DNA of 64,000 nt from Haplodiscus bocki (lineage: Eukaryota). The notes below the pieces were generated by a model, which saw nothing but the letters and a program-made list of their open reading frames with translations, made no database searches and was not told where the DNA came from. Made by a program: the position numbers and the translations under genes. Numbering within the stretch: position 1 is the stretch's first letter; every line of letters starts with the position of its first letter. The stretch covers positions 53,754,001 to 53,818,000 of the forward strand of contig OZ296651.1 of NCBI GenBank assembly GCA_965655095.1. The letters run 5' to 3'. This document shows positions 1 through 45,618 of this stretch, in pieces.

Positions 1-100
1 AAACTACCGAATTTTTCTCGAAATCGCACAATTCAGACAACCGATCATTGTAATCAGAAGCAAACAGAAGACAAGAACTTACACTGGCGATATTGTACCC

Positions 101-3100
101 ATGATTGGACACACTACTCTATCTTTCAGCTTTGATTCAGACGGAGAACATCAATTTGAACTACGAATATGGATTACAGAGACACAGACCTCAAACCTAC
201 TCGGAATCGAATTTTGCCGACAATACATTTCGAAACTGCTTTTCGAAATACCCGTCATAGAACTCAAAAACACGGCGAATGCTATCTGCTATGGTAACAT
301 GTGTTCAACAAAACCCTACCCATTCGTTTCCAAAATGCAAACTATCAGAACTCCCCATCAGATCCACATCGATGCCAAAACTTCCAGAGTCTGGAAATAT
401 TCATCAGAAGACAAGTCAAAGAATTTTCCCCCAGGAACCACCTTTGTTCCTCATCGGCACTCAGTTAAATCAGGACTAGACTGTGTTAACGTACTAAGCA
501 CCCAATCCGAAAATTATCTTCCCATTTTGATGGAAAATTACAGAAACCACCAAATAACTCTGAACAAAGAAGTCATTGAATATTCTTCATTCGATATCTC
601 CGACCGTGATCGACCCAAATATCAGATCAGAGACTGTGTTCAGATGGTCAACTCAATTCTAACAGAAAATGATCAGTATAACGAATGTTTTCTTCTTCAC
701 TCCACAGTTCCATGCGAACCTGACATACAAGATAGAATACAAATACTGAACGGGAACGACGAGAAAATTTTCCAAGCCAACACCGCCATCGCCCATTGCA
801 TTTCAGCCGATGCTAAGATGAGTAAAGGATTTGCAGAAACAATCTGCCGTAGAGTAAACGGACTCCAAGAATTTTGCCGAAAAACCAAACCAAATGTAGG
901 CTCAATTATCCCCTACTGGGATCCAGAATCCAATAACTTCATCTACAACCTAGTAACCAAATCGAAATTCTTTGAAAAACCCACGTTAGACAACCTCCGA
1001 ATCTCACTCGAGAACATGAGAGGACATGCTCTACTGAACAACATCACTAAAATTTCAATGCCAAAGATCGGATGCGGACTAGACAAACTCCAGTGGACCG
1101 ATGTTTTCAAACTCATACAAGATACCTTCACATACTCTGGGATTCAGATCCAGATAATTACCAAACGAGAAACAGACTCCCTAAGAAGAAACCCATCATC
1201 CAACAACGAGCGCTATGTAGAAGACGAAGTAGAAAGTTACACAAACGAATGGACCAAAGAACGAGACGAATTGGAAACTGACTTTACCAAAGACTCAAAA
1301 TCTTGCCAACCACCATGCACCGAACAATTTCCTATCTTGAGATCAAAACAACTCAATGATGACCTGATCAACTATTACCTCCAATACCAATCGGAGGATA
1401 TCATGAACCTTATTAAACAATTTGATTTCCGATACACCGACCTAGAAGAAGAAGAACTAGTCACTCTCATTGATATGATCATAGATTCCAGAGAGGTATA
1501 CTCTGAACACAAATTCGACATTGGCCAGACGAAACAGAAATTCCATGTCACCTTGAAACCCATTTCAGAGCTCAGAAAGCAGCGACCTAGCAAATGCCCC
1601 CTTCACCTCAAAGACAAACTAGAAAAACTACTTGGACAACTCCAAGACTCCAGTATCATCCGAGAAATGGGTGATGATGATGAACTAGGATCACTTTTCG
1701 TTAACCCCATCTTACTTCTACCGAAAGCAGATTATGTTAAACTAGTCATCGACGCTAGATACTTGAACTCCATTACCGATCTAACTAAGTATTCATGGCC
1801 ACTAGAACCAGTTCAGATGATTATGAAAAGGATCAATGGCAAATATTTTACAGCAAGCGATCTCTCATGCGCCTATCACCAAGTCCCTCTATCTCCTGAG
1901 AGACAGAAGTTGACAAGTTTCGTAATAGGAGGAAAACAATACACCTATCAAGTTGGATTCTATGGACTTTGTGGTCTACCCCAATGGTTCAGCCGGATGA
2001 TGGCTATCAACTTCGAACCCCTCATCAAGAAGAAGAAAGCTATAACCTACCTTGATGACAACCTACTCCAATCCCACACCAAAGCGGAAATGTTCACAAT
2101 CATTCATGAATACCATCAACTCCTTCGTAAAGGAGGACTTAAAGTAGCCCCGCATAAAACTCATTTCTTCTTCAGGAAAGTAAAATTTCTCGGCCATGTC
2201 ATTTCCGAACAAGGGATTCAACCAGTCGCAAAAAGAGTAAAAGACCTACAGAATCTGAAATCTCCTGAGAGCAAAAGGGATGTAATGAAAGTTCTTGGAT
2301 GCCTAGGCTTTTATAGCTGTTACATCAAGAACCTCCACGTCGATAGTCAACCTTTCTACGAATTGATCAAAGATACTACTCCTTTTAGATGGACCGATCA
2401 GCATGAAGCACTTTTCAAAGAAATCAAAACCAGAATCTCCGAAGACACTATATTGGCAGTACCCTCAACCGAGTACCACTTCTACATACACGTTGACTCT
2501 TCTAACATCGGAACCGGTTGCATACTAGTCTAACAGTTTCCCGAAGGAAAGAGAATTGTCTCATTCAACTCTAGAGTTTTCGACAACGCCGAACAGAAAA
2601 TGTCTACCCTCCATCGAGAATTATGCGGAATAGTATCTGCACTACAAACTTACGAACATTCTATCATTGGATCACCCTTTCCGATCTATCTCTACTGTGA
2701 TCACAAACCCATCCTCTATCTCTGGGGACGAGAAGGACAACTTTCCCATCGATTTTTCAAAGATCAAGTTATCATCACTAAGTTCCACAACCTCAAAATC
2801 ATATGGACGCCCGGATCCAACCTTGCCTTTCCTGACATCCTCACTAGGAACGTGACGTTATCAGAGCCAAACAAACTACAGCCTCAACACAAAGAAATTC
2901 CACACGATATATCGTTCTACGATCAGGACGGACTCAAAGTCCACTACACCATCAAGCACGAAGAAGAACAAAACGCATCTTATAACGACTTTTACCCTAT
3001 CATCTGCCAACAAGGCAACACAAGAAAGACTCTCAGACTTAAAAACGATGGAAATGAACATCATGTTGAAAATTACCTTGAAGATAACGAAGTTCTAGCC

Positions 3101-5382
3101 ACCATGCAAGACATGACCGATTGCTTTAAACTCGGAAAGACAATTAACCAATACAAACAACTTTGCTCCAGCATTAGTCCAGCATCAAGCACCTCTAGTC
3201 TTAATGAACACGACTACAGTGATATTGAACAGTACGATGAAGAATCAACAGATGACGAAATCGAACTAGCAGAACTCCACTTTGAAAGTCAAGACCCTGA
3301 TTTTTGCCGAGATAACTCTGTAGCTCACGAATTGTTCCGTACGAAAACAACAGACAAACCAATTCGAAAAAAACCGACTTGTTTCGAACTATTTCCTCAC
3401 GTAGACACTCCTGATCTGATTCAAAAACTCAGTGATTTTTCTCGTGACGCTGACTTAGACATACAAACACTTTTAGAAGAACAACTCAACGATCCTGTAC
3501 TACAAGTTGTTCGCAAATGGATCAAAACCTCCGATACAAGACCTCAGAAACACCAGACCTTAACCAGTCTAAAGCCCTGTTATCATATTACAGGTTCGAA
3601 CAACTCTTCATCGAACCCGACACTAACCTCCTCTGCTACAAAGAACCAATCCATGACACTTACAAAACTGAGATGAAAATTTGTGTTCCCTTATCTCTCT
3701 TCCTACCCCTTTTCTTTCTAGCCCACACTCACAGCCATAGTGGCCACCCAGGAATATTCAAAACCTTCGAAAATATTAGACAATACTTCTTTTGGCCAGG
3801 ACGATACAAGTGGATAGTATACCTAATAGAAGATTGCATCGAATGCCAAACTAATAAAACGAAAAGACACGACCTACACGAAGCACCATTGGAACAATGG
3901 GGAGAACTAGAAACAACACCTTTCAAGACAATACATATCGAGCATAAAGGACCACTTCGCAGTAACTCCAACACTCATTGTCTTGTCGTAGTGGACGCGT
4001 TTTCGCGGTTTATTGGAGCCTACCCAGTTAGAGACACCGGAGCTCAAACGACCATCAACGCACTAGAAAAATGGATCACATCATATGGTATACCCCAGAA
4101 AATTGTTCATGATAACGGTTCAGCCTTCATAAACAGTGACTTCATTAACTGGACTAAAGAATTCGGAATAACCCTCGCCCCTCGCGCTACCTACTCTCCA
4201 TGGACTAACGGCAAAGTCGAAGTACAAAACCAGCACCTCACTAGATACTGGCGAAATTTCATGAATCAATCTGGAAACAATTGGTCAAAACTTACATCCA
4301 AATTTGCATTCGAATATAACACTAGTGTAAACTATACAACTGGTCAGACGCCTTACGAGATCGTTTTCGGAACGAAACCTTAGGTTCCTATGACTCTTAA
4401 ACTTGGACTACTACGAGATAAAGACAAACAATGCAAATCCGAATTCTGTGATGGACTCCAATCTCATACGCACAGCGAAAACAGCCTGCCGAATACTTTT
4501 ATTAACCGACTACTTCGACCGCAGCTCTCAGACGAACTACTGAAGCGAGAAAATGAATTTAAACGAATTTACTCGTCAACCTATCAGAGATGTGGCCAAA
4601 TTACGTCAAAAGCACACGAGCACCGAAACTGATATAAACTCGGACGAACTATCAGCACTGGACAAAAAGTCTTCTTAGAAAACCACGCGCAAGACCTCTC
4701 GAGGTCTCACAAACTGAAACAACTACGAGTCGGACCGTTTACAGTAACAAAACAAATCACGAATACGACGTACGAAATACGAGAAGACGCAAATCCCGAC
4801 AATGTCAAGACTACGCACAGAAATCACCTAATAGAGTTTTTCCCGAAAGAAGAACGACTCCGTCCGCTTTTTACTAACTATGCCGTCATATCTAGAGACT
4901 CCGATTTCTACAAGCATTTAGTCAACTCGCAAATTGAACAAAATAACTCTGGTGAAGAAAAACACTCCCTTGACGTAATGCCTTTTGCTATAACGCCCAT
5001 TCAAAACAATTCAGATAGTCAACAAAAAGATGATATCGAATTTTCGCTTAGAGCAGACTGTGGAATACATTCGCCTGCTAGTTCATTGCAACAATCACCT
5101 AGAAGCCAAAAATCGAGCCCTTACGAAAATAGAGCATTGTTTCCCCTACCTGAATTTCAATCACAAAATCTGCCCATGACTCCTATGCCCAGACAACCGC
5201 ACGATCTACAAAATACAATACGCGATTCCCAACGTTCGATTTCAAATACCCCACCAAATTCAACTAATTCTACTGATAAAGGCAAAATAGCACATTTCGC
5301 GACAAAAGTCAAAGAAAAGTATAGAAGAAATGATCCTAACAGGTCACTCAGAAGACTAGAAAGAAAGGGATACAAAGACTAA
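101..5382 (+). pseudogene. pol: Disrupted pol polyprotein (protease C-terminal part, macrodomain, RT, RNase H, integrase)
   Basis: RT motifs LVIDARYLN, DLSCAYHQ, YLDD, FLGH. RNase H VDSS, RELCGI, YCDHKP. Integrase HHCC (AHTHSHSGHPG...CIEC), HDNG, NGKVE, GPF. Lesions: TAA 2531-2533, frameshift near 3540-3590, TAG 4381-4383, TGA 4630-4632. Confidence 0.95.
733..1165 (+). other. Macrodomain of the TARG1/OARD1 (Poa1p-like) class, in frame within pol between protease and RT
   Basis: Signature motifs IAHCISADAKMSKGFA, IYNLVTKSKFFEKPT and ISMPKIGCGLDKLQWTDVFKLIQDTF. Confidence 0.9.
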
Positions 5383-6935: not shown

Positions 6936-7175
6936 TTGATGTATTTTAAAATCAATAACACAATCGTTGAGATATTCCAATTTGAAAAGAAAGAACCACA
7001 TTGCATTCTCCGACATACACGAAACCCCCAGACTAGGGAAAAGAAGATATTTGCCATCACAGAAGGAACTCTATACTTTCCATTTTTCGAGACTGTATTC
7101 AAGCTTCCACATGCCATCCCTTCCAATCTACACCTAGCCGAACTAACAACCATAACTAATCACAATGATGTTTGA
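6936..7175 (+). CDS. Small ORF or fragment of unknown function inside element A
   Basis: 79-aa ORF with the same A/C-rich composition as the element's coding strand; no recognised domain. Confidence 0.3.
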   Translation: MMYFKINNTIVEIFQFEKKEPHCILRHTRNPQTREKKIFAITEGTLYFPFFETVFKLPHAIPSNLHLAELTTITNHNDV

Positions 7176-7566
7176 TCTTAACGAAGATATTTATGACGAA
7201 AATAAAATTGAAGAAATTGAACTCAACTGCCCATGGACTATAACCGTACCCTCAGGAGCAAGCCATGACTTTATGATAACAAAACTCAGATGGTCATTTG
7301 ATCACCCATTTTGGCTAACAGCTAATATCTACCCTATTGAAAACCCCGCTAAACCAATAGTCCTTGATATTAAAAGAGAAACCCTTGCCTTCGCAAAACT
7401 TTTCATCACTCTGACTCTCTACAAACGATATCCTGAACCGCATCTCACTCAACACGATATTCACACTCTACGAGAACTAATGGAGAATGCAGAATTTCAC
7501 ATGGGATCTCACACAAGCTACTATATAGAAGAAATAAAGAAGATAATTCAGAATCAATCCAACTGA
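7165..7566 (+). CDS. Accessory ORF, 133 aa, unknown function
   Basis: Open ORF between pol and env with a globular-looking sequence; no recognised domain. Confidence 0.5.
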   Translation: MMFDLNEDIYDENKIEEIELNCPWTITVPSGASHDFMITKLRWSFDHPFWLTANIYPIENPAKPIVLDIKRETLAFAKLFITLTLYKRYPEPHLTQHDIHTLRELMENAEFHMGSHTSYYIEEIKKIIQNQSN

Positions 7567-7577: not shown

Positions 7578-7852
7578 GCTGATGGTGTCAGCTTGTGTTT
7601 CTTATAGCTAGTGGTGCTAGCTCAATATACTTTACACTGGTGGTGCCAGTGATGTTCGTTACTCCTTTCATTTCAGGTGCATTTACTTTTCTTAGCTAGT
7701 GGTGCTAGCTCAATATCTATTCCACTGGTGGTGCCAGTGACGTTCAGTAATCTTTTCTTTTCAGGTGCATTTACTTTTCTTAGCTAGTGGTGCTAGCTCA
7801 TTATTCTTTCCCTTGGTGGTGCCAGTGATGTTTGTTAACAGTTTCTTTTCAG
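7578..7852 (+). repeat. 88-bp tandem repeat (3 copies) forming TGGTG-loop hairpins, each unit ending in a splice-acceptor-like tract
   Basis: AGCTAG-tggtg-CTAGCT at 7606, 7694, 7782; CACTGG-tggtg-CCAGTG at 7635, 7723 and degenerate at 7811; GCTGA-tggtg-TCAGC at 7578; pyrimidine tract + TTTCAG ending 7676, 7764, 7852. Confidence 0.85.
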
Positions 7853-7934
7853 ATACAAAATAAAATTCTCTCTCAGACGTCTTACTTATACCTTCCTTTT
7901 CAACAGTAACCAATTTTCATTTCAGCAATTTGTT

Positions 7935-8033
7935 CCGGCTTAAACGTGCCGAAGAGTGTCTTCCCGGTTTAGAGTACCGATGTGTCCCGGCTTAAACGTG
8001 CCGAAGAGTGTCTTTCCGGCTTAAAAGCGCCGA
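7935..8033 (+). repeat. Four short CGGY-loop-RCCG hairpin repeats
   Basis: ccggcttaaacgtgccga (x2), ccggtttagagtaccga, ccggcttaaaagcgccga. Confidence 0.65.
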
Positions 8034-8275
8034 CGTGTTTTTCAATTTTTGGCTACAGTCATCTCCCTGGCCAATACTTTCGACTTCAATTCTTTTTAGC
8101 ACCTTGACCAATCATTGTCATAACCTTTCAGTTTCTATGCACCAAAACTCTATATTGCCAAAGAGCTTCAATACAGACCTTCTTCTTCATCCGGTTAGCG
8201 AGTTGCTACTTTCTATTCATTTGGTAACATTTTTCTATTTTAGCTAAAATCGGAGTACCGTTTTCATTTGTGATA

Positions 8276-9616
8276 ATGAATAGTGAAAAGATGGCTATCT
8301 TAGAATGTATTGTATTTCTCTTGATACTAAATGTTTCTATATGTGACAAATACGAACCCAAACTTGACGACATTGCACCTTCTGTTCAAGTATCCCACTA
8401 TGATTGCGGCGAGATGACGGAAAACAACCTCTATTCACTGAACGAAGTTAAACCTTGCAATATGGCACCTCAGAATATTCAGATGAACGATGTGAAACTT
8501 ACTATGTATACCAAACACTTCCGAACTGAGATCAATGCTACAATTTGCCGAATCAAGCACCAGAGAAACAAATTTGATTGCGGGATGCATGATCAGACTA
8601 TTATGGACATTGAACAACCTCAGATAACAAGCGATATAGACCTGACCCCTGAACAATGCAAACAAGCCTCCAAGGGACGATCACTTACTCTATTTGACCG
8701 CAAACTGACTTTTGAATAGGGCAAGAAAGAAATTCATCATAAAATTATTGCAGATAAAGATGATGACAACCGTAACGAATGTGATGGTTACGAATGGATA
8801 ACCAGAGATACTTTTGAAAGTCATATACAAGATATCACTCTGAAAGTAAGAATTAAAGATGGCAAGATATTCAACAGAAATGACCAACTACTACCTTGTG
8901 ATTTGGACGAACTTGGATGCGAAAGCACCTCACTGGACCCATATGCTTATACGTGGAAAGCCCCCGAAAATTGTATCTTATCAGTACTAAAAGAAGACTA
9001 TGCACATATGCTAAAGAATGATAACCACTACTACATAGTCAGTCAGAACACTTCAAAAAACAAATATCTCTTTGAGGTAAAGAATCACCCTCAACATCTT
9101 TGCAACAAACCAACCGCAGTCTACCCAACTACATACGACTCAATGTATGTTGCTATCCACTATGGTGGATTTGATATGAAAACTGGACCAAAACTCAACG
9201 AACTTGGACCCCACCTTTTACAATATCAGAAAAACGCCTTCCTATCGAAACCTGGAAACCTCTACGTCTATAGCCCTCAACCCAAACCAGCGGATCCATA
9301 TTTTAATACATGGTTAAATATGGACTACGAACTACAACAAGGTACAAAGCTTGACTACCTTTTCTTTGAGAGTTCCAGAGCACTACAGGCATCCGAACTA
9401 AATCTACTAAAGAACCAATGTGAACAGGAAAGAATCCAAATTTTTACTATCTTGATGCTATCTCTTGAAAACCCCAGACTCGCTGGATACATGCTTACTG
9501 GAAACAGATCAATGTTCTTGGAGACAGATGGAAGCCTAGCCTGGCTCTACTCCTGCCCTCAACATTATGAGCCAAGAAGGTTACCCCTTCTCCGACCTAG
9601 ATTTTCTTCTATCTAA
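8276..9616 (+). pseudogene. env: env-like viral glycoprotein (chuvirus-G / class III fusogen-like), premature stop and C-terminally truncated
   Basis: Signal peptide MAILECIVFLLILNVSIC; Cys pattern HYDC...KPC...TICR, CESTSLDPYAYTW, HLCNKP..YPT, KLDYL, QCEQER, WLYSC; sequons NAT, NTS, NRS. ORFs 8270-8719 and 8903-9616 are one frame split by TAG 8717-8719. No TM anchor left. Family assignment is by eye. Confidence 0.7.
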
Positions 9617-10025
9617 AGACAACTTCAAAGAGGACGACCTTTTGCAGCTCCCAGAACTACTACCTGAAGAATCAATAACCCCTTCTAACCATACCTCCAT
9701 CACTCACGAACTCGAGGATCTCTCCCTTACACCCACTGACGAACCCACCATTGCCCTAAACATTAGACCCAGGAAACGAAAATCAACTACCCCCTCACGA
9801 CAATTGTTTCATAAACAGAAGAAAAGCGAAGAAGCTACTTCCAAATATACTGCTACCCAAAACCCTCAGTTCCAATTTAATCTGACCTACAAAATTAAAG
9901 AAAATATAAATCAGTGGAGAATAGTATTTTGGGACTCCAAACGACAAGAGTTCACCCTAGAAAACCCATCACTAAACTACCAACGATTATCTGTACCCCT
10001 TAGATCGATTTCAGCATTCTGCTAA
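9567..10025 (+). CDS. Accessory ORF, 152 aa, acidic/Pro-rich N-terminus with basic NLS-like RPRKRKS
   Basis: Open ORF whose stop lies immediately before the TRAF-like ORF; no recognised domain. Confidence 0.55.
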   Translation: MSQEGYPFSDLDFLLSKDNFKEDDLLQLPELLPEESITPSNHTSITHELEDLSLTPTDEPTIALNIRPRKRKSTTPSRQLFHKQKKSEEATSKYTATQNPQFQFNLTYKIKENINQWRIVFWDSKRQEFTLENPSLNYQRLSVPLRSISAFC

Positions 10026-10026: not shown

Positions 10027-10785
10027 ATGTCACAACCTTCACTAAAAGAGAAATTTGAAGACGAACAACTTCTCAGCACCGCCCTTGCTACGGAACTAGA
10101 AGATGTTAAAAAGACCTTAGCCCAACTCAAACTAGACAAAAGTAAGCCTACACACAAAGGACCGTTCAGCTTAAAACCTGATTACTATATCAATTACTCT
10201 ATTAGAAGGATCTTCGAAGAACTGGATAAACTTGAATCTCGACTAGAGAAACTAGAATCAGGAGAACAACCCCATGATTGGAATCTGTATAAAATTATTT
10301 GGAAGTTAGAAAACTTTTCAGTCGTATTCAACAACGCCAAACAATTTGAAGAGATAGAGAACAAAAACATTGCTGATCCAAACCTAGCACGCGGTTTCTG
10401 CAGCACAGCCTTTCTCAGTAAACCTTATGGCTACAGCTTCCTTATCCGCGCCTTCCCTTATGGATGTGGTCCAGCACTTGGCAAATCAATGTCCATCAAC
10501 ATATCTCTCATAGCCGGACCCTTCGATGATATCCTCCCTTGGCCGTTTAAAGGAACTATCCAAATCAGTGTCTTCAGACAAGACAACTCTGGTTTAATCT
10601 GGACCAACCTTCTAAAACCGAGTGATAAAACTACCCCCTGTTTTGTACGACCATCACCTCTACAACCCAACCCGAGTTGTGGTATTTTCTTCTACCTTCC
10701 CCACGAAGAAATGTGCAAGACGCAGAAGAACCTAATCAAGAATGACAACCTCTATATTCAAATAAAGACTCTTGACTTCCTGTGA
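10027..10785 (+). CDS. TRAF-like protein: coiled coil + MATH (TRAF-C) domain, no RING or zinc fingers
   Basis: Heptads (LATELEDVKKTLAQL, FEELDKLESRLEKLE) followed by TRAF MATH motifs IIWKLENFS, STAFLSKPYGYSFLIRAFPYGCG, MSINISLIAGPFDDILPWPFKGTIQISVFRQD, IKNDNLYIQI. ATG at 10027, intact. Confidence 0.9.
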   Translation: MSQPSLKEKFEDEQLLSTALATELEDVKKTLAQLKLDKSKPTHKGPFSLKPDYYINYSIRRIFEELDKLESRLEKLESGEQPHDWNLYKIIWKLENFSVVFNNAKQFEEIENKNIADPNLARGFCSTAFLSKPYGYSFLIRAFPYGCGPALGKSMSINISLIAGPFDDILPWPFKGTIQISVFRQDNSGLIWTNLLKPSDKTTPCFVRPSPLQPNPSCGIFFYLPHEEMCKTQKNLIKNDNLYIQIKTLDFL

Positions 10786-11050
10786 ACCCCGGTTTCAATT
10801 TCAACAGCTGTGAGTTCCGGGTGAGATGTCGTGTTCGACATACAGCAAAGAAAAAGAAAGAAAAGAAAAACTGTGAAAAACTAAACTTAAAAGTGTAACA
10901 TTTTAAATCTGCCATTTTGACTGCCGTTGCGCAAGTTCGAACATGTCCCCAAATTTGTTGACAAGCCAGAACTAACGCCGCCATGACACCTACCTTATAT
11001 GGACATCGGCGTCACCCAACAAAACAATAGACTCAACTCCCGAGATAATA

Positions 11051-11214
11051 ACGTCATCTGACGTCATCTGACGTCATGTGTGTATTAATATTATGGATAC
11101 TGACGACTCCCAAGTCACGTGACTAGGTCACGTGACTGACGTCATTCTCGGAGCCAATTCTGTGCTACCTCTATTCTGGTTGGCTCCCGAGAGCACAAAA
11201 TTTAGTATATATAG
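11051..11214 (+). promoter_or_regulatory. LTR U3 promoter: CRE/ATF repeats, two GTCACGTGAC E-boxes, CCAAT, TATA
   Basis: ACGTCATCTG repeats giving TGACGTCA sites (11051-11077), GTCACGTGAC x2 plus TGACGTCA (11115-11144), AGCCAAT near 11152, TATATATAG 11206-11214. Confidence 0.7.
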
Positions 11215-11540
11215 CGGACTAAATTCGCCTTTGAGAGACGCATCTTTCCAGCTCAGATCAGATGTCCAACGATCCGTGAAGTCACTCCACCCATTTTCCA
11301 ACATCAGCAGTTTGAGTCCAGTGCAGTATTCTTTGAGCGGTTATGTTTTCACTTTTGCTTTTATTTCTAACTTTTTCTTTGGGTAATACTTTCTTTATAA
11401 TATAACTTTAACTTTCTCTTGATGTAAACTGAACATTTAAGAAACCAAGCTTAACTCTTAACTTATAGAAACAGTAACATTTTTTATGTTTAGCTTAAAT
11501 TTATTCAACTTAACTTTAACTTAAGGCTTGACTGAGCTTA

Positions 11541-11945
11541 ATCTAAAATATAAAATTGTGTATGTGTTAAATCTTCTGTGAGGTGGTCTCGTCAAGAACG
11601 GACTCATCCAGCCTTGGTCACGTACCGGCTTGATATTTGGAAAATACTCAAATCCTCTTTGAGGTAGTCTCGCATGTCGGACTGATTTAGCCTTGGTCAA
11701 GTACCGGCTACTAAAACATTTATTATCTTAAAAATTAACTTTATTTAACTTTAACTTTAATCTAAAATATAAAATTGTGTATGTGTTAAATCCTCTGTGA
11801 GGTGGTCTTGTCAAGAACGGACTCATTCAGCCTTGGTCCCGTACCGGCTTGATATTTGGAAAATACTCAAATCCTCTTTGAGGTAGTCTCGCAAGTCGGA
11901 CTCATTCAACCTTGGTCACGTACCGGTTGCTAAAATACTTATTAT
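11541..11945 (+). repeat. 219-bp tandem duplication holding four copies of a ~51-nt double-hairpin unit
   Basis: Units TGAGGTRGTCTYG...CGGACTSAT...RCCTTGGTC..GTACCGGYT start at 11579, 11660, 11798, 11879. Confidence 0.85.
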
Positions 11946-14441
11946 CACTAAACCTAATACGTTTTCGTACTTTAATATCTTTCTTAAGGTTAATCGATGA
12001 TCCTCTTAGATGTCGTTGTATTCATTATATTTATAATACTTTTCCGCCTTTTTATCTTGCCTTTATGATTTGTACTCTGATTTATTTTGTTAGTCTTGAT
12101 ATCTTAATACTGTTAACCTTTCTGATATTTTGTCTTCCTGAATTTATAGATAATTGTAAGTCACCAGTTGATACTATTTCTGAAAATAATTTATCTGTTG
12201 ATAATAACAAGGTTTCTTCACAATATTCACCAGATAGAAAAAGTCCTTCCTTTCGAACTCACGCCTGAGACGACCTTTGTTGAAGTGCAGGAAGGCAACT
12301 GTCGCAAAATTGAATTAGGAGACTTATCCTGAGTTTCGGGATAGTTTCTGACTTGGAATAGAGTGGCTTTTGAGACTTTCCACTGCTATTTCATCAACCC
12401 ATCACTACACACACAACAGCACTTCACACCAGCAGTCTGTATAATGAGATACAGCTCAATCTCAGTATGAAAGCTGGCTAAAGTCCTCAACTGGGGGTGA
12501 TTACTGAATCCTTTCTTTAGTTCAGTACTCCGCTAAAGGTGAGTCTAAAAACAACATCTTGAAATACGTGAGAGCAACCGAAGTCATTTGGCCATCTTGA
12601 GTACTTCTTCACATCTTGAGCACGTGTGTAGGGATTTCAACTCGGCCAATTAACGTGCCATTTTTTAATTTCAGAATTTTTGCAAGCCTCTGATTTCGAG
12701 TCAACCTTCAAGAGTAAATTCATGAATTTTCTTTCGCACTCACAAGATAGAAAAAGCTTGACAGAAAAACCCCATGATGCACCCAGATCAACAGAAATTC
12801 CCAAGTAGACTCCTGGAAAGTTCTCTATTCCTGGAAGCTGCCTCTCCTTCAGATATCGGTATTTGCACTGCAGGTCTATTAGGTGACTCTTTCCGCTCCT
12901 ACTCAGCTGTGGAGAAGTTCACCGACAGTGAAAACGACAATTGGGAAAAATGCCTGGGCGCTCTTGCAAAACGATACAAGAGGGTCTGGAGAATGAGAAC
13001 GATCACTCATTCAAAAGATTTTCATCGCTATTGAGCAGCGCGAGTCCACGATAGATGAGGCGCTCAGGCAAAATTTGCGCAAAAAATTCAACCTTTCCAT
13101 CGATATCACTCCGACAGACAGAGCAGCGTGGCTGAGCAAGAAATTTTCCAGTCCCGAGTTCGATAAAACGTGAAGACTCATCTGTGGAACAATACACTGC
13201 TTAGGATGACAAATGTTAACTGTTATCACTTAAAGTGGAGTTACTACAGTGTACGCTTATTATGCTACCTCAGGGAGACGCCGAGGTAAGTGAAATAAAC
13301 GAAAATATATATACTTCTGACGTACAAAGAGTGGTCTCAGCAGTGGTTAGGGGAGAAAAAGTTTTCACTTTAGGAGCAAAAACGGATTTAGACACGTGCA
13401 TCAACGACTTGAGAGATTCGAGTCGAGTTAATGGCAGCAAACGGGCAGGAATGAACTTTGTTCGCGTTAAGAGCTCACTAACCCTGTTGCAAGGATTTTT
13501 TGAGAGTGATCCTCTCGTCAGCCTTCCGCGTGGGCAGATCAACAAACAACATGCGGCAAATGTCAAGAGTCGTAGGACCTGATGTTGCCAGAACTAACTT
13601 TGAAAACTCTCAGGTCCTCCAGGAAAAGATTGGTACGGATCAAGTACTTGTCAGTGCCCTTGGGAAAGCTCGAGTGGTGACTCCTGTGGCTAGTATCAAA
13701 GTCGACTTCTGCGAAGTATCCCTTGTTGACCAACCGTACAGTCACTCTGGGTTGAGGAATATTGAAAATGCAACTTGCTCAGTGAGTGAGTCCACGTCAA
13801 TTACCGATGAGCTCAAACCTCCTGAAGAACCTACAACGTGTAATCCTGTATCTGACAGTTCATTTCAAAAATCCAATTCGCTGTGTCGAAGCTGGTCCAG
13901 GGACCCTACTTGTGCCATGAGAAGTTGGAGGTAAATAAGCGTGAAGATTTTTGCAGAATAAATTTTCGTCCCCTTAAAGTGTGTTTTCATGGGTTTGACG
14001 GGATAATCTGACACTTCACCATGAAAATTTAAAATCTCAAAAATCTATGGTACTGCCAACAGCTTTAAATAAACAGGGTACCTAATGGGAAGAGAAAACC
14101 AATGAGTACTAGTCAAATAGGCCGAGAGAGGCCTGTGTTCATGTCTGTTGTACTTATGGAACTAGAGAGCGTGAAGAGACGGCTCAGGAGCAAGTCAGTG
14201 TACGGGGAATCGACTGAAATTACTTCCCACCTTCCAAAATTCTGACCCAACCAAAGTTTCGAAGTCTGCGTCTTCCTCTACATGAGTTTGTCAGTGACCT
14301 GAGTGACTTTTCGCAGATTTTCAGCGAACTGACACAGCGTGCGGCCGCAACTGATGACTTTATTTGGGGCAAAGAGTGTTATTGTGTTATATTATTCCCT
14401 GCATAAGGATCAATCTGTCGCTCAAGCGTATGAGCCGCTAA

Positions 14442-14732
14442 TGTCGTGGCCATCTTGTGGGCCAGAGTTTTGTGTTGTCTGGTTGCGGAAGATGCTTGCT
14501 TCAGGATGAGGATCATTCTGGGAGTCGTCCTCATTCGTTCCCTGGTTTGTTCCAAATGCATTCTGGGAGGTCACCGGAGCGGTTCCGGAGTGGCTCTGAA
14601 TTAGCGGGTTCATGAGAAAGTGGTAAAGACGTGATAACGCGCCTAATATGCGGTTTTCTGTCCAAATGAACTCTTGCGACAACTTTTTTGTGACTCTTCC
14701 TTCAATTTCCTCAGAAACTTGAGTTATCTAGT
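14442..14732 (-). mobile_element. Older inverted LTR related to element B, 3' part (split by element B insertion)
   Basis: Encodes a diverged copy of the LTR-borne ORF (TENRILGALSRL...GTNEDDSQNDPHPEA); ends GGCCACGACA at 14442. Confidence 0.9.
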
Positions 14733-16480
14733 TGTCGCAGCACACCTGCGAGGCATGCGGCCAACCCCTTCCTTAGAACAAAGACATCCCAACGGTTCAA
14801 TGAAGAACTTAAAACTATAAACATTACTAATTAGACTCATAATTAATCATTTGTTAGACCATTTCTTAATCATTGTGCATATATACGGACACGTATGAAA
14901 TACGTATCCATAACAAATGCACAGAAAATATCAACTGATCCAAACTAGGACGGAACCGTTACGGAGCAAAATAAGTATTCACAGAGCAATTGTTTCCTTA
15001 AAGGTGCTATTTTTATATTAATTTACTTAATTATCTATTTATTTAGATATCAATATAGATCCACCTTTCTGGTACAATTGCAGTAATTAGTAGTAATAAA
15101 TGCAGTGATTGACTTTTAGAAGTGCTTGTAACAAAGCGGCTTACTCGTAACAAATTGACTCTCGGAGTGAATATTTGTTCCGTACGTGTTCCGTCGTCAC
15201 TAGTTTGGTGACGTCATCAATATTATTTCAACTATGCCGTGCTGCAGTGCTATGGTGAATACGGAGTGACTCCGTATTCACTCCTAATTCGATCACGGCC
15301 GACTAAATTAACTCGTACTACTAGTGGCTACGGAGCGCCTCCGGAGGCCACTAGTAGCAGACTGAATTTTAACTTGTACTACTAGTGGCTACGGAGCTGC
15401 TCCGGAGACCACTAGTAGCTACTAGGCGGAACGAGGAGTAAATTGGTAATTATACTAGTTTCTCCTCATCTCCAAAATACTGAAAGCTTAATTAGATGAT
15501 GGTAATATGAACATGAAGGTGATGATTAAATGTATTTTTATGATGAAATCATGCATTTTGTATTTTATTTTATTTTCTTCATTTTTAGTTTTGTAATTTT
15601 ATTTTACTCTCCTAAGCAAGGAAATTCTTTGAACTTTCCATCTATGGAGTATACAATAAACAACTTGTCGGCGCGGGAATAAACACTTTGATGGCCATCT
15701 CTGACGGATTAGGACCGTCAATTTTCTGTCGAAAGATGGAAAAGGCGCGTCCTATGATGAAAGAGATGGATGGAAAAGTTGTTTATTTCCCGCCTGGGTC
15801 GGCATTTTTAACTTTGATGTGCTGTAGTTGAAAGTATTTTTCCCTATTTGTACTTTGACTTGGCGGGTAAACAATTATGTTTCCCGCCAGGAAAAAGTAT
15901 AAATAGGAGAAATGAAAATACAAGAGACAATTTCTTATTTTTATGATACTGATGATAATAACCCAGTACTCTTAAATTTCCTTCATAACTTTGCCTGTTA
16001 CTGTTAGAACCAAGTTGATTTTCTCAATCCTCAACACAAATAATAAAGTATTACTGACTGATAAAAACTTCTCCTTTAAAATGACAACTCGAAATAAGAG
16101 AAAGTTAGCAGCGTTGAACAAAGAAAAGTGTGAAGAGCACCCTAGGAGCAACTTGGCACAAAACTCAAGCGCTCCTAGATCGCAAGAAGAATACATTACT
16201 CAAGTTTCTGAGGAAATTGAGGGAAGGGTTACAAAAAGACTGTCAAAGGAGTTTAGCAGAACGGAAAACCGCATTCTAGGTGCACTGGCGCGACTTGATG
16301 ACTTTCTGATGAACCCATTGCTACCGGGGTACTCCGGAGCCACTCCGGAGCCCACCCGCAGCGTACTGAGAAATAACCAGGGAACGAATGAGGACGACTC
16401 CCAGAATGATCCTCATCCTGAAGCGGGTCTCTTCCACAGCCAGTCGGCACGAAACGCTGGCCCAGGAGACGACCGCGACA
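14733..16480 (+). repeat. 5' LTR of element B (1748 bp)
   Basis: Direct repeat of 26172-27860; has an extra 61-bp tandem unit within 15301-15420. Confidence 0.97.
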
Positions 16481-16497
16481 TGGTGACAGGAAAATAG
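16081..16497 (+). pseudogene. LTR-encoded ORF start (probable Gag N-terminus) cut off by internal deletion; second copy at 27461-27860
   Basis: MTTRNKRKLAAL... begins inside the LTR and reads across the LTR end and PBS; conserved at protein level in the older LTR copies (14442-14732, 36078-36346). Confidence 0.6.
16481..16490 (+). other. Primer-binding site remnant (TGGTGACAGG)
   Basis: TGG immediately after the LTR terminal CA; priming tRNA not identified. Confidence 0.65.
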
Positions 16498-19400
16498 AGT
16501 CACCAACACCACAGAATCACCCTATACAATCAATAAGAACACACAAATTGCCGATTTCTCCGTAGTCACTCCGGAGCAATCCAAGTTTATCAAACCGGTA
16601 GACATGGCAATCCTGAGCATGATTCCTGAAGGTGACCCAGATTTGATCACATATCTGACTGAACTGCTCAGAACAAACAAATCAGATCAGCAATCCAACA
16701 CCTTTTGGTTTCCGACACCCGAAAATCCTGGCAATACAGACGAGCACACCCCAATTCAGAAACGAATCTTAAAAGAATTGTGTGAATTACAACAAAAGGA
16801 AAAACTGAATCCGAAAGATGACAATGAATCAAGAACTGAATTTTTAAAGCGCTTCGATTGGATAGACACACTGCTTAATGAAAGTGAGAAACACGCAGTT
16901 GAAGACATTCTAGTTGAATACCATGACATATTCGCTAGACACAGAATGGACATTGGGATGAACACGGAATTTAAGGTGAGACTCACACCCAAGGATGACA
17001 AAGCTGTTTACAGCCAAAGCTTACCAATGCCGATCCACCTGAAAGAAGATTTGATTGTTGAACTCGCTCTCATGCATAAATACGGGATCATCACAGTGTT
17101 ACCTTTCTCAAAATACGCAAGTCCCATATTTGCACAGAGGAAACCGAATGGAAAATTGCGTCCTCTTGTGGACCTTAGGAAAATCAACACCCTGACTGCA
17201 GATGATTATACTAACAACAATCACCCAGTCAGCACTTTGTCAGATGCAGCACAACACCTGGCAGGAAAATCCCTATTCTGCAAGCTTGATTGCTCCCAAG
17301 CTTACCACTGTTTGCAGATGGCGGACCAACGGTCAGTAGAGATGCTTGCATTCAATTTTTCTAGCAGAACTTTTGCCTACAAAAGACTTGCACAAGGTCT
17401 CAGCAGATCTGTGTCTGCTTTTTCAAGTTTCATGCGCGAGTACTTGGACCCAGTTGTCAAAGCTGACCAATGTGCTCAATACGTGGACGATATTGGAATT
17501 GCAGCCAACAATGCTACGGATCTTAACCGGAACATTCGGGCAGTCTTCTAGTGCATTCGCAACGCAGGATTAAAACTGACAATTGAAAAGTGCCACTTTG
17601 GAGTCAGGCAAGTTGAATTTCTTGGAAGAACCATTTCATCCGAAGGAGTATCACCACAAGCTCACAAAATTCAAAATTTTCTTGCTAAACTTCGATTCCC
17701 CAAATCAAAAAAGGCATTACAGCGCTATCTGGGTTTCGTAAACTATTACAGAAATTATATTCCCAGAATGGCTGAAAAACTGCATCCGTTCCACAAATTG
17801 CTCAAAACGGAAGTGCCAATCAATATTACGTCACAGTTGAAAGAAACATTTGATTCAGTCAATACAGCTCTCAGTAACGCATGTGAATTAGCACTGAAAC
17901 AACCCATTCCAGGAAAGCAACTTGTCTTAATGACAGATGCCAGCTTCAGAAGTGCCGGATATGCCCTTATGATTGAGGACAATCCCGATCAGAAAATACA
18001 GTCAAAGCGGAAGACGTATGCCCCCGTGGCATTCGGCTCAAAAATTTTTTCCCCTGCACAACTGAAGATGTCGATTTATTCAAAAGAATTTTTAGCAATT
18101 TACATGGCATTCCTCGAATTTGCACACATCTTGTGGGAAGCAACGAAACCAACGATCGTTTTGACTGACAACAAATCCGTCACACGATTTTTCCAGACCA
18201 AAGCAATTCCACCATCTTTGTGGAACGCATGTGATTATGTGATCCAGTTCAATTTCAAAACAGCCCATATCGCCGGTTCAATAAACACAGCAGCCGACTT
18301 CCTTTCACGATTAGAGTTAAAAGTCACAGAAAGAATCTGTCTCAAAATCAGGGAAGATGTGCAAACAACACCAATTGAAGTCACAACATCCTCTTCAGAT
18401 GTTGCAGACGAAGAACAGGTTTTCTTCACGCACACAGACGATCAAAATGAAACTGAAGAGCAGATCTTACAAAGGAAAGAACAATCTCGGCAAAAAGCAG
18501 TAGAATGGGTAGCCAACCAGGAACAATCCTCATTGAAGCCAAGTATAAAAGCATTCACAAAGATCGACGGAAATACTACGGCGTATTCCCTTCATGGAAT
18601 TAAATCAAATGCGAGAATACGAGTCGAGCAAGACGCCGATCTAGTATTGAAGAACTTGAAACTTAAAATACTTGGCCAGCCACACGATGACGTCTTATTG
18701 ACAGCAGATAGACGATTTAAACACTACAAAGCCAATGAGGATCGCATTATCCTCAAAGATGGACTTTTACTCCGGAAATACTACGGAGACACTGGTAGTG
18801 TCAAATACTACCAAATTCTTATACCGAAGCAGCTAGTTAACGAAGTGCTCCGGAGCCTCCACGGAGACTTTGGAAAACACCCCGGAATTACTAAAATGAT
18901 AATTGCCTACAGAGAAAAGTATTATTACCCGAAAATGGCTCAAATGATCAGGGAGTGGGTCATGTCTTGTGAGAAATGCATTCGAGAATTACGGATTAAC
19001 CCGCAATTAAACCGCCCCCCTCTGCAAAACCCAAATGAGCACATTACTGCGCCCGAAGACGCCATGCAAATTGACTTAGTACCGGGATTACCACCATCTG
19101 GCGGCTATGAGAATATTGTGACAGCCATGGATGTATTTTCCCGCTATTTATTTGCATACCCGACAGCAACTCAAGATGCCACCACAATTGCTAAAGTGAT
19201 AATTAACATCATGACTAAGCACGCCTACTTACCAACGACGCTCATCTCAGATAAAGGTACAACCTTTACGTCACATGTAATTAAAGAAGTGGCCGGCGTC
19301 CTTGGTATTACTCTAAAGCACGCCACCACCAAGCACGCTCAAACAATTGGGCTACTTGAGCGATCTCACATGTCAATCAAGCAGTCATTAAAGATTGAGA

Positions 19401-20311
19401 CAGGCGAGCGTAGATCATTGTGGCATAAATACATCAGCATTGCGGTCCTTAATTACAACACCTCTTATCATTCAAGCATTGGCTGTGAGCCAAGCAGAGT
19501 GTTTCACGGCCGCATCACCTACAATGTCCTTGATCTAAAAATGGGTATTCGTCCACAGAAAATTTCCCCGCCAGATTCGGAAATTGCACAAGATGTCCTT
19601 GAGCAAACAGAAGCCATTTTCCAGGACGTCAGAAGAAATTCTATGCAAGCTTATATCAAATACAAAGCGTATTATGATAAAAAAGCCAACGCCTCAAAAC
19701 TCAAACAGTCAGATTATGTGTACATTTTACAGCCAAAAGCCGATCATCAGGGAAGTAAAATTCCCTTTACAGACTTTCGGTGGATCGGCCCATATATTAT
19801 TGAGAAAGTATTACCCAACAATAATTATGTGGTACGCAAAATTGGCACCAACAAGACACAAATCCTGCACAGAATGAGGCTGCCTCAATTCACACCCCGT
19901 CAGCCAATACCCGACATATCAGTCACACCACGCGAATGGCAACCAGACCCGGAAGTCACCATTAAACATGATGATTTATACGCCAGAGCATGGGAGTGTG
20001 AATACGACAAGCCAATATTCGACAGCGACCGCGATAATCTGGTATCACCCAATTTACCTGAAATCACAGTCCGATCGGGGGAAGCTGAAGATGAAGTGAG
20101 GAGCACTCCAGGAGTTACACAAAAAGACTCCTCAAATATTCTCCCCCACGCAGATGAAATAGACGACGGAGCAGATACGGATCACTACATGCAGCCTGAT
20201 GCGGACAATAGCGTAGAGCGAATTGACCCTACGCCCACCAACCCCCGCAGCTCAAAATATAATCTACGCCACAACCCAAGGCCAAATTGTAATGACGACT
20301 ACAGATATTAA
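16496..20311 (+). pseudogene. pol: pol remnant (RT, RNase H, integrase); protease absent; one in-frame stop
   Basis: LVDLRKIN, LDCSQAYH, YVDD, MTDAS, SKEFLA, LTDNKS, HGDFGKHPG...CEKC, QIDLV, SDKG, GLLER, WIGPY; TAG at 17549-17551 splits a single frame. Confidence 0.95.
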
Positions 20312-20661
20312 ATCGTCAGTCTGCCTGGGTATGTATCCGGAACAGCTACGGACACAAAATGTGGATTTTGGGAATGTGCTACGGAGCGCATCCGGAGCCA
20401 GTACACGTTCCCCTATAGAACTCCGAATAAGTATGTCTCCGGAGTGCCTCCGGAGACATCCCTGAAATTTCCTGAAATTCCCAAAAACAATGGCGACGGA
20501 TACAATACGGAGTACACACAAGCTATTCCGAATGATTTGAGGATACAACGTGGCAACGTACTCAAAGACTACTCAACTCTGTAAAGTGACAGCGGGCTAT
20601 AGACAGTTAACTACGTACTCTAAATACTAAATATAATTTAAAATTCAAATGATATGTCAAG

Positions 20662-23600
20662 TTATCGGGGACTAGACTGGAAGACTGGTGCAGCACGACG
20701 ACTACGACCACTCCGGCGAGATGCAGCAGTTTTTTCTTGACTCTGGAACGCGCATTCAAAATTAGGGTCTTCGAAATATACCCCCCTCCCCTTTGGCAGA
20801 ACAACCGACTCGTCATCAAACTCAAACAGTCGCTTGGGCCCAACAGCGGGAGCAGGTGTCACACTTCTCTTCCGCTTTCCTTTCCCGGGGCCTCGAGGAG
20901 ACACTGTAGTGCTGCTATAAGGCTGATCCCGAGCAAGTACCGACCCAGACAAGTATTCAACCTGTCCAACTTCAACAACATTGGAGATTCTCACTCCAGC
21001 CCGACCAGATGACTCCCCAACTTCAGAAGACTCGACACTGCGCACTCCGAACCATCTCTCTGATGTATCGCGTGCCTCCTTCCGCCTAACCACCACAACA
21101 TCATATGCCTTCCTGAGATCAACCAAAGTAGCCTCATACCCACCAGGAAGAACATTCGCCCAAGGCTCGCAAGTGGATTGGTCACGCATCGAACCAGCAG
21201 CATTGACGGCAGAAACGAGCAAATTCACCCCATTGTCGCTGAAGAAATCGCGCTGGGTAAACCTAGGCGACCGCACAAAATCCTGAATGCACGCAATTGA
21301 CTTCTCCACAAGCCGGCGACTCAAACCAATTCCAGTCAACTTGACAGTGAATGCGGGAAAGTCCTCAACAGAGTCCCGAAGAAACAAGGTCGTCAATTGG
21401 TACACCTGCAATAAATACTGACAATTAGTGCTTACAATGAAGGCTACCTTGGAGCTGGTGCAACTACTTACTCTGAACAGATGTCTGCGACTCTGGAATC
21501 CAGTCTGTTGAGAGAAGTAGGCCAGGATGTTCCTTACATCAGGATGCTTCCTCGTGGAATGACGTTCCAACTGGCGCTGCTCCCGGACAAACGACTGAAA
21601 CTCAGCTTTGCAAGCCTCAATGTGGGAACCCTTCTCCCAACCACACTCCACAAGCCCATCCAGCAGCTGTCCGAACAAGAAAAAGGCGGAATGGTCATCG
21701 CCTCCAAGAATGATTTCAGGGCAGAAACAGCTGACTCCCTGTCCCAGTTTTGATCTGGCAGCCACGGTTGACAAAATGGTGCTGCAAAATTCGTCCAGGA
21801 AACGACGGGCACTGGTCCGGAACTCCTTCCGCAAGTAGGAGCTCGACATCTTCTCTAAAGCTGCATGGATGCGGGTCCCCACGAGAAAATGCTCATCAGC
21901 AATGGCAGCGAATGAAGAGTGGTTCGGCAGCATGTAATCTTCCCATTTCTCCACCAAGGGAAGCGACTCGCTCGTCTTGATCTTCTGTAGGATGCAATAC
22001 ACAAAGTGGGACAGTTCGCCATACGCCCGATACCCGTACCCACTGCCAGGAGTCTGTTCTGCGCTGAAGTTGTTGTTGTCTGAAACAGAAGAATGCCACT
22101 GAGTACCAGCCTGAAATGAGGAGGCTACTAGGAGCACTCCAAGTTGGATCCTAGAATTCTCTCACCAGCCTGAAATGAGGAGGCCACTAAAAGCACTCCA
22201 AGTTGAGTCCTAGAAATCCCGGACGGACCCAAAACGAGAATCCCGCTGGGAGTCCTACAGATGGACTCCTAGAAAGCCCTACCTCTGCAAAAAGAATATG
22301 AGGATCCCACTGGGAGTCCTACAGGTGGACTCCCAGAAATCCCGAAATATATGAAAATGAGGAGGCCACTAGGAGCACTCCAAGTTGACTCCTAGAATTC
22401 CAACAGTCCAAAATCGCGTGGGAATGGCAGTTACTACACCATGGTGACATGTTGGTGGAAATACTAACACATTTCGAGGATAAGATGGAACAGACGAAAC
22501 TTCATTCTGCCCAATTGGTCGACATAAAAGTATCCATCTATCCCTTTTTTCTAAACAAGGAAATAGAAATGACTATGGGCGCTAGATGGCAAAGAAACGC
22601 AAAAGGAAGAACCATACCAGAAGGCTATCTCCGCTGTCTTTCTTTCCAGTCTCTTTGAGATACGAGACGATCAGCGGCCACACACCAATGATGTTGCTCA
22701 CAACGTCAAGAAGACCGGGAAGAGAAAGATCGCCCGTCTCAATGGCCTGACGAAGGGACTGCCTTGACTGCATCCAGTCTCGATGCTCCGCCCCCTTCAG
22801 CCTCACCACAATGAACTCTGTCATTGAAAAGGGGTCCAATGTCCCGAACACAACTGATGCCGTCTTTTGCAGGCGTCGCTTCAGCAACCTTGCATCGAAA
22901 ACCGGGTAATCTATAAGGGTCTTCGTGTACCCACTGCCGAGGTACTCCTTGTAGCACTCTACTAATGTGTGGGAGCGGCCCGAAAGAGAAACAAGTGATG
23001 CCCCGCTGCCCACAGCGCTCAGGATCTTGCCCAGAATCGCCAACTCACTGCTCGAATCGCCATAATAGCGGTCAATTATGGCTACCGCTACCCGCACAAA
23101 CTCCCCAGCCTTCCACGTCCTAATGAAAACCCAAGTTGCAGAGCCGTGAGTCGCAAACTCCGCACCAAACTGCCGAGATGCCCTGACCCAGTCAACAACA
23201 CGTGTCAAAATCCTCGGCAACATTCCGTTCAGTAAAATTGACTAAAACAGAAACCGAGAAACCCTGAATTAAATGCAATTAGTCCATATGCAATCCGGAG
23301 GCACTACGGAACTAACCAAAACCTCATCGCGGGACCAGGCAACAGTCACATTGATCTGGCTGGCCGTCAACACAAAGCGCTCCCACAGTTTTTCTACTAG
23401 CTCGTAGCTCCCACCCAACTGCAGAGCACCGATCAGGCACGAGACTTTGGCCAACAATGGCAGCTGCGCATCCAAGTTTCCGGAGGCATCCGGAATCAAA
23501 TCCTCTCGAAAAGGATATTCACGATCCCGGACTACTAGTGGCGCAAGCATAATTCTTTCCCGCTGTCTTTCAAGCTCGTCTTCAGGGAGCGGGTTCCCGT

Positions 23601-25161: not shown

Positions 25162-25538
25162 GATGAACGACGTGGCTTGCTTTCAACTATTACATGGTGG
25201 ATTTATAATTTTATTCATTAATTATCATGATTATTTAATTTGACCGATTTGTCTGCCAGCAATGACGTCAGCAAATATTTCAAGGAGACATTGAGGAGTG
25301 AAACTCAAAATTTTCTCATTGCTAAACCTCATCTTCATTTTGTTTACCAATCATCAACTTCAGTTACACCGCCAATTCAGTGACTCTAACACTTCTACTG
25401 AAACCGCGGGAACTTCAAAGTACTTCCCGCTTAACGGCGCGTGCCGCCTCACGTTTCAGTAAGATCATCACTTTTCAAGTCACTTTGTCAATAAGCAGCA
25501 GCTCTAAAATAATTTAAACTTCATTAAATTTCATTACA

Positions 25539-26215
25539 ATGTATCGCAATCTTTCTTCCAACTCGTCAACAGACTCCGACGTTTTCTACGTAGAGCAATC
25601 TTCGCCAGAAAGGAGCCCCATCAGACACAATACTCCGGCTATCTTGAACTCGACGCAGCTATCGGGAGCAATCGACCCGGAGATGATCACGATTTCCTCC
25701 GTCGCCTCTCCGGAGCCACAAATAGTCACCATTGACTCTGACTCGAATGAGCCGACTCTCCCATATGCCTTCGGAGCCCAATACCCGATAGTGCCGCCAA
25801 GTTTAAACGATCTTAATTTGCCGGCCAATCCCTTTAACATGCTGACATCTATGGCCGTTGTACAGCAGGATCAACAAGACAGCCCCTATCGCCCGAGCCG
25901 TCTGATCCGTCACCAATTTCAACTCCGCCGATGAACATTAGCACAATAAGTGGATTGGAGACGCCGCACACTACAACGGACGAAAATACCTTTCATTCGT
26001 CTGATAACGATCCAAGACGGGTATACTGGGATGCTTCTCTTAATGAAACTTTCGAGTAAGGTGAACCCCGAAGAGTCTACCCCATTCCAAGCCCTCAATC
26101 CACACCGCCGCCTCCTCCGCGAAGAAAGAGAAGACTGAGTATGGGGATGTCTTTTCCCAAAGAGGGGGGAGTGTCGCAGCACACCTGCGAGGCATGCGGC
26201 CAACCTCTTCCTTAG
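25539..26215 (+). pseudogene. Disrupted Ser/Pro/acidic accessory ORF with SIM-like motifs, running across the PPT into the 3' LTR
   Basis: MYRNLSS...VFYVE...MITISS...IVTIDSDS. After a 1-nt frameshift near 25886 it continues SPEPSDPSPISTPP..., has TAA at 26057-26059, then PPPRRKRR...SQHTCEACGQPLP-stop at 26215. Confidence 0.6.
26159..26171 (+). other. Polypurine tract of element B
   Basis: AAAGAGGGGGGAG directly before the 3' LTR TG. Confidence 0.9.
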
Positions 26216-45544: not shown

Positions 45545-45618
45545 TGCTCTATAGCTCAGTCGGTAAGAGCATTGTGCTAAAAACGCGAGGGTCGAGAGTT
45601 CGAAGCTCTGCGTGGACA
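45545..45618 (+). pseudogene. tRNA-Ile(AAT)-derived unit 1
   Basis: TAGCTCAGTCGGTAAGAGCA D-arm, GTGCTAAAAACGC anticodon arm, GTTCGAA T-loop; acceptor stem mismatched. Confidence 0.65.

Follow-up and report, generated by a model that had tools for sequence, protein, structure and literature searches.

A probable decayed Ty3/Gypsy errantivirus in Haplodiscus bocki with a truncated gB-like envelope gene, a macrodomain and a TRAF-domain ORF

Among described elements, the closest to the one reported here are the HSV/gB-type errantiviruses of Chary and Hayashi (eLife, PMC13524379), multi-copy elements in which Gypsy pol is followed by a class III env with a leader, a Cys-bridged ectodomain and a transmembrane (TM) segment; the survey calls this env both Chuviridae-like and gB-like. 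The available text of that survey counts about 221 elements of the HSV/gB type among 1512, with Gypsy pol and spread across animal phyla, from cnidarians and ctenophores to insects. Adjoining Gypsy pol it also finds the Chuviridae-like glycoprotein known from mosquito BEL/Pao elements; its baits included BEL/Pao chuvirus-like ones among others, and that search yielded 114 elements. The initial annotation of our locus had started from the premise that gB-like env resides in BEL/Pao elements while errantivirus env is F-like; this premise finds no support, as the survey places the gB-like type beside Gypsy pol. In the form available, the survey's phylum list and supplements do not include Xenacoelomorpha, and by the authors' own account it is not known how gB-type errantiviruses enter cells.

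Other relatives share single traits with the locus. Anakin, a BEL/Pao LTR element, carries a chuvirus-like glycoprotein (10.1101/2020.02.15.950899, available portion). The giant planarian Gypsy element Burro/GYPSM1 is described, in the accessible part of PMC6431247, as combining a mononegavirus-like env with a MATH_TRAF_C domain, found as a separate accessory ORF in Dugesia tigrina; Burro is about 30 kb long, its env sits between gag and pol in the same frame, and the element further encodes BIR, BCL2, ankyrin and dUTPase domains. In Drosophila gypsy and ZAM, env also follows pol and has the same presumed role. Macro-domain ORFs are mentioned for epsilon-like endogenous retroviruses of fish in the part of PMC4977317 at hand, which cites Basta 2009.

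The sequence analyzed here is a 64,000-nt stretch of the H. bocki genome, called the window in what follows, with a broken env ORF at positions 8276-9616 of the forward strand. We consider it likely, at a probability of roughly 0.85, that the region around env is the 3' two-thirds of a single decayed provirus, belonging to a multi-copy Ty3/Gypsy errantivirus family with an HSV/gB-type env. The layout would be (gag)-pol(PR-macro-RT-RH-IN)-ORF A-ORF B-env-ORF C-TRAF-LTR (Table 1). The window starts inside pol, and gag and the 5' LTR lie upstream of base 1.

Table 1. Features of the provirus. Coordinates are positions in the window; a dot marks a feature given no strand.
Feature	Position	Strand	Details
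Ty3/Gypsy pol	2..5382	+	protease region, macro, RT, RNase H, integrase, GPF/SH3 tail; begins before the window
TARG1/OARD1-like macrodomain	779..1162	+	between protease region and RT; phmmer against PDB 4j5q, E 6e-27
Orphan ORF A	6939..7175	+	78 aa from ATG; overlaps start of ORF B; no Pfam match
Orphan ORF B	7165..7566	+	133 aa; no Pfam match; Atlas best 0.79, uninformative
Tandem repeats upstream of env	7605..8023	.	3 x 88 nt; two 44-nt copies 52 nt apart; families D7 and D12
Candidate splice acceptor	8225..8243	+	pyrimidine run ending in AG, picked by eye; about 33 nt before env ATG; putative function
5' part of class III env	8276..9562	+	corresponds to residues 1-424 of the 700-aa relative P0001; leader, fusion and PH-like domains, central helix
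Deletion junction	9562..9566	+	about 0.86 kb missing
Orphan ORF C	9567..10025	+	152 aa; acidic N-terminus, basic RPRKRK stretch; no Pfam match
TRAF-domain ORF	10027..10785	+	252 aa; probable coiled coil plus MATH/TRAF-C; PF21355 E 1.4e-17, PF22486 E 7.7e-15
Purine-rich tract and presumed 3' LTR start	10817..11202	+	TG at 10827; common to other copies

The pol region matched the Pfam models RVT_1, RT_RNaseH, RT_RNaseH_2, Integrase_H2C2, rve, Integrase_p58_C and SH3_Tf2-1; its protease region was placed by colinearity with the relatives P0339 and P0348. The order PR-RT-RH-IN, together with a Gypsy-type RNase H, an H2C2 integrase and a GPY/F-SH3 tail, assigns the backbone to Ty3/Gypsy (Metaviridae), as initially annotated. 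No BEL/Pao-type pol was seen, since the four pol segments gave solely Gypsy-type RT, RNase H, integrase and SH3 models. Pol is broken by stops at 2531, 4381 and 4630 and by a frameshift near 3545-3550, and it runs colinear, in two frames, with the uninterrupted relatives P0339 and P0340 (1.8k aa; clusters of 168 and 617 sequences).

RT phylogeny was assessed with a quick tree, supported by SH-aLRT only, that drew on 47 rows out of 120 stored Pol hits, with one selected row removed because of low coverage. The window RT belongs to a clade of 30 rows that has 100% support, a long branch and no named member, and that stands apart from the six named rows. Within this tree, a group of 11 rows (support 91) contains the window and nine Pol relatives with a macrodomain at the same position; the eleventh member, P0346, starts too late to show one. 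More distant Pol relatives, such as P0348, have no macrodomain at that position, a pattern that fits a single gain. In the 4j5q comparison the lysine of an ITK motif and the aspartate of a GLD motif align with TARG1; we take this lysine to be K84 in the TARG1 numbering and assume a role for the aspartate as well. TARG1 takes ADP-ribose off protein and DNA by means of K84, its catalytic residue (PMC8501950). Macro domains recognized by Pfam are also carried by two distant Gypsy Pol matches, P0428 and P0410, the latter having two, at its C-terminus, which suggests repeated capture of macro domains.

Several features that had been read from the letters of the env ORF were recovered. The ORF has its first ATG at 8276, a second ATG at 8291 and its terminator at 9614-9616. 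The one nonsense codon is a TAG at 8717-8719, codon 148; with this codon read as X the product is 446 residues long. The signal peptide corresponds to the lone hydrophobic segment of the X-read protein, at residues 6-24 (Kyte-Doolittle mean 2.2), a call made by hydropathy scan and not by a signal-peptide predictor. In keeping with an ectodomain described as Cys-rich, the X-read protein has 14 Cys; it also has four N-glycosylation sequons. The protein matches the Pfam family PF24664, Monjiviricetes_fusion, at E 4.7e-16 and 58.3 bits (cut-off, 27).

Relatives of env were sought by a search limited to longer proteins, which yielded 70 among 956 candidates. All 70 are annotated as PF24664 and all align to the window env; PF24664 was matched in each of the 12 that were scanned. 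Env clusters hold 268-850 members, and 344 clusters (at 50% identity), many of them fragments, score below E 1e-30 against the env profile. Twelve ectodomain Cys are kept in about 90-98% of the aligned rows. Identities within the env family span about 23-95%, and a quick tree of 41 stored relatives plus the window showed a deep radiation, with end branches of up to 2.7.

The best relative, P0001, has 700 aa and represents 268 sequences. Its residues 1-424 align to window positions 8291-9562 at 95% identity, and its residues 425-700 have no counterpart anywhere in the 64-kb window. An abrupt end of env, with a deletion near 9560 and loss of the part before the membrane anchor, had been suggested initially, and these results bear it out. 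Since the matches of env relatives stop between 9550 and 9568, and the final 17 codons (9563-9613) are unrelated sequence overlapping ORF C (ATG at 9567), the break was placed at 9562-9566; no second hydrophobic segment is found in the window protein. A diverged copy, P0336, covers the missing part. It matches P0001 residues 513-700 at 69% and, 12 residues past the env match, reads into sequence matching the beginning of ORF C (identity at 15 of 24 positions; pair E 1e-6). We conclude that env is closely followed by ORF C in intact copies and that about 0.86 kb was lost here, a size estimated from this one relative. Judging by the P0001 model, the bulk of the crown domain was lost together with the C-terminal helix, the membrane-proximal helix, the TM segment and the tail.

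Full-length copies with a TM segment, which the initial annotation had proposed to look for, do exist. A crude hydropathy scan placed a hydrophobic segment of P0001 at about residues 598-626, and the same scan found a C-terminal hydrophobic segment in all 24 relatives of at least 680 aa and in 52 of the 70 overall. Thus leader and TM segment flank the ectodomain in the env family, and the TM segment is missing from the window copy.

The combination of a leader with the loss of the anchor is what a domesticated env would present, one acting as a secreted antiviral or receptor-blocking protein; domestication has been proposed for solo chuvirus glycoproteins of mosquitoes (10.1101/2020.02.15.950899, available portion). 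We regard this as extremely unlikely here: the stop at codon 148 falls within the fusion domain and ends the product there, and pol has decayed to the same degree. The junction was also unseen among the stored env relatives, a weak argument as the searches favored long or representative proteins. The lesions are hardly better explained as mistakes of sequencing or assembly in an element that is really intact. The region is rich in repeats and known from the assembly alone, but several independent lesions are scattered over 9 kb, most of them nonsense changes and not indels, and the 5% amino-acid divergence of the window env from the large cluster represented by P0001 is what decay predicts; such errors are therefore very improbable. 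Intact elements are defined in PMC13524379 by uninterrupted gag, pol and env; the window copy is interrupted by stops, by a frameshift and by a deletion, and uninterrupted env and pol relatives exist separately. Because pol is equally broken, the env lesions belong to general decay: the window copy is dead, with env and pol both disabled by decay of the usual kind and with a truncation that serves no function.

The fold of env was compared with Chuviridae G, herpes gB and baculovirus F, as the initial annotation had proposed. The P0001 model (87 sequences; pLDDT 79.5, pTM 0.56) was searched against PDB with Foldseek, and all 35 rows listed were herpes gB (best E 6.2e-15; TM-scores 0.21-0.26). 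VIA-align ranked HSV-1 gB first (Z 10.2, rmsd 18.3, 436 aligned) and domain IV of PRV gB next (Z 8.1, rmsd 3.6, 156 aligned), followed by rabies and Chandipura G and thogotovirus GP. The high rmsd and low global TM-score to gB probably arise from the domain arrangement in a monomer model. Among predicted viral structures, the best matches of P0001 were G of Tacheng tick virus 4, of a dermapteran chu-related virus, of Drosophila unispina virus 1, of a xinmovirus and of a qin-related virus (E 1e-30 to 2e-34); identities to viral G were 8-18% among the 50 rows listed. The X-read window env gave a similar picture (pLDDT 81.4), with xinmovirus G ranking first and chuvirus G second, and with Z 9.4 against two gB chains (rmsd 11.6 and 13.1; 312 and 324 aligned).

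Searches of PDB by sequence with env returned no match, and the other env and profile searches gave one portal protein (E 1.8 and 0.82). Baculovirus F was absent from the listed rows of the fold searches, where Newcastle disease virus F reached no more than Z 3.4, an absence that by itself does not amount to exclusion. Pfam holds a baculovirus F model, and neither the window env (E up to 0.1) nor any of 12 relatives (E up to 0.05) matched that profile. The Atlas score of P0001 was 0.97, at a recognition value so low (1693) that it counts as weak. The best structural matches are thus viral and of class III, and on the predicted structures env is a class III fusogen of the chuvirus/herpes-gB-like kind, in keeping with the PF24664 match and with the first assignment as a chuvirus-like or gB-like glycoprotein. 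As viral G proteins are only 8-18% identical, and as chuvirus G shares the place of nearest viral fold with G of xinmoviruses and qinviruses, "chuvirus-type" is a fair label for family and fold and names no donor.

These affinities bear on a further proposal, according to which this Gypsy lineage took env from a chuvirus-like virus, separately from the other gB-type errantiviruses. The best viral matches are indeed G of chu-, xinmo- and qinviruses, and the RT clade stands apart from the six named rows of its tree on a long branch. In addition, errantiviruses come from several Gypsy lineages, according to the available text of PMC13524379, and for Pao/Anakin the portion at hand of 10.1101/2020.02.15.950899 reports capture from a chuvirus. 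Yet the 8-18% identity of viral G lies below the env family's own span of about 23-95%, with its end branches of up to 2.7, so that any capture would be old, and the accessible part of PMC13524379 shows this env type adjoining Gypsy pol in many phyla, a distribution that its authors read as ancient. Independent capture by this lineage is therefore doubtful, and the association of the Gypsy lineage with env looks old.

A TRAF-domain ORF lies downstream of ORF C. Compared with TRAFs in PDB it gave a best E of 2.9e-14, and it has the TRAF-C/MATH sandwich; unlike TRAF2-6, which have them at the N-terminus, it gave no Pfam match for RING or zinc fingers, and its first Cys does not occur before residue 125. 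Of 134 relatives, 120 were listed, at identities from 92% down to 41%. Among these 120, 17 continue into sequence that matches the window past the stop, one of them to 11202, and eight begin within DNA that corresponds to the last part of ORF C. Three of the nine closest env relatives, and none of the other 61, appear to share a contig with a TRAF relative, as judged indirectly. The reading of TRAF relatives into the end of ORF C and into the sequence past TRAF, together with the env-TRAF pairing, shows the TRAF ORF to be part of the repeated unit; the order env-ORF C-TRAF-purine tract-TG recurs in other copies. No relatives from named families were found for ORFs A, B and C in Pfam, or for ORF B in Atlas. 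The presumed LTR sequence has no second copy in the window, nor was the end of the 3' LTR found there. Two 201-nt copies, 219 nt apart and with an internal 60-nt repeat, occupy 11538-11957, in or just past the presumed 3' LTR.

Could env be a chance endogenous viral fragment, or a BEL/Pao piece, lodged in a Gypsy copy instead of its regular cargo? The end of pol and the start of env are separated by 2.9 kb, which hold ORFs A and B, and none of 23 pol relatives appears to share a contig with any of the 70 env relatives, so that the pol-env linkage rests on the window copy. Chuvirus-like glycoproteins mostly lie beside Gypsy fragments, with capture not clear, in the available text of Dezordi 2023 (PMC10084718). 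Against a chance fragment stand the env clusters with hundreds of members, the recurring order from env to TG with the env-TRAF pairing, and the absence from Pfam results of any BEL/Pao or viral N/L family in 16 plus 35 ORFs of the window, the 35 further ORFs giving nothing above cut-off. We find such an accident most improbable, and retain env as regular cargo of a multi-copy errantivirus.

The remainder of the window holds other repeats. A second, unrelated Gypsy element spans 14733-27860 (+), with 1.7-kb LTRs that are about 99% identical and have TG...CA ends, a PBS at 16481, a purine tract ahead of 26172 and CTAGT duplicated at the target site. Its pol starts just past the PBS, so that gag and protease appear deleted, and no env match was found in it. 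Three antisense ORFs (-) in this element, at 20662-22161, 22582-23241 and 23269-24039 (499, 219 and 256 aa), lie in a G+C-richer stretch and have no Pfam match; the last has a zinc-finger-like CxxC...H...H pattern. Tandem repeats of 59 nt occur at 22105-22404. Inverted relatives of its LTR, 70-79% identical, flank both ends and recur downstream (14438-14730, 27862-29199 and 36519-36774, all -). An ORF at 43548-44039 (-), possibly a host exon, weakly resembles C-type lectins (E 0.003, which falls short of the cut-off). Nested repeats occupy 45261-46326, and a tRNA-Phe(AAA) called by ARAGORN at 45959-46032 is probably spurious, as it sits in a repeat.

Set against the described systems, each ingredient of the element has a precedent, and the pairing of this env with Gypsy is not news. 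Unlike the intact HSV/gB-type errantiviruses, the window copy is broken; its env starts 2.9 kb past pol, after two intervening ORFs, a gap wider than the automated filter of 500-1000 nt in the available text of PMC13524379. The words macro, TRAF and MATH are absent from the main text of that paper in its available form, and the window element has both domains. It differs from Anakin in its Gypsy backbone, as opposed to BEL/Pao, and viral G is very distant from its env. In contrast to Burro, env and TRAF each have an ORF of their own on the 3' side of pol, and the macrodomain sits between PR and RT. G proteins of Chuviridae, Xinmoviridae and Qinviridae have PF24664 and the best predicted-structure matches in common with the window env, but identity is 8-18% and no N or L gene was seen in the window. 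Drosophila gypsy and ZAM have a class I F protein where this element has class III, and the fish elements with macro-domain ORFs belong to Retroviridae, whereas here the domain is TARG1-like and lies inside Gypsy pol. Neither an element combining macro, TRAF and gB-type env nor an acoel env was found described in the literature covered, a partial set with few subscription journals and without Repbase. Less ordinary is that the family carries two host-like genes, for a TRAF adaptor and for a putative ADP-ribose-removing domain.

By analogy with Drosophila gypsy and with class III fusogens, a working copy might operate as follows. Env would be translated from a subgenomic, probably spliced RNA, with the pyrimidine run listed in Table 1 as candidate acceptor; it would enter the ER and form trimers on virus-like particles, and these would fuse with neighboring, probably germline, cells, as happens in Drosophila gypsy. 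RING-less TRAF constructs behave dominant-negatively. In TRAF proteins, TRAF-N and TRAF-C serve oligomerization and receptor binding, and RING provides ligase activity (PMC3697994). More speculatively, then, the RING-less TRAF of the element could fill receptor sites as a decoy, and the macrodomain, from its resemblance to TARG1, may strip ADP-ribose from protein or DNA of the element. A bolder picture is that of a "complex" invertebrate errantivirus, a high-copy Gypsy lineage with class III env, in an animal group outside the published survey, whose working counter-defense genes would be a de-ADP-ribosylase of the TARG1 kind released from Pol by processing, a TRAF decoy that lacks RING and as many as three more accessory ORFs; we put this forward tentatively, as possible though not probable.

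The family could contribute a further lineage, one that may escape automated surveys as its env lies 2.9 kb from pol. If the macrodomain and the TRAF protein work, they would point to ADP-ribosylation and TRAF signaling as host defenses against retroelements in an invertebrate, and both functions could be tested on single natural proteins.
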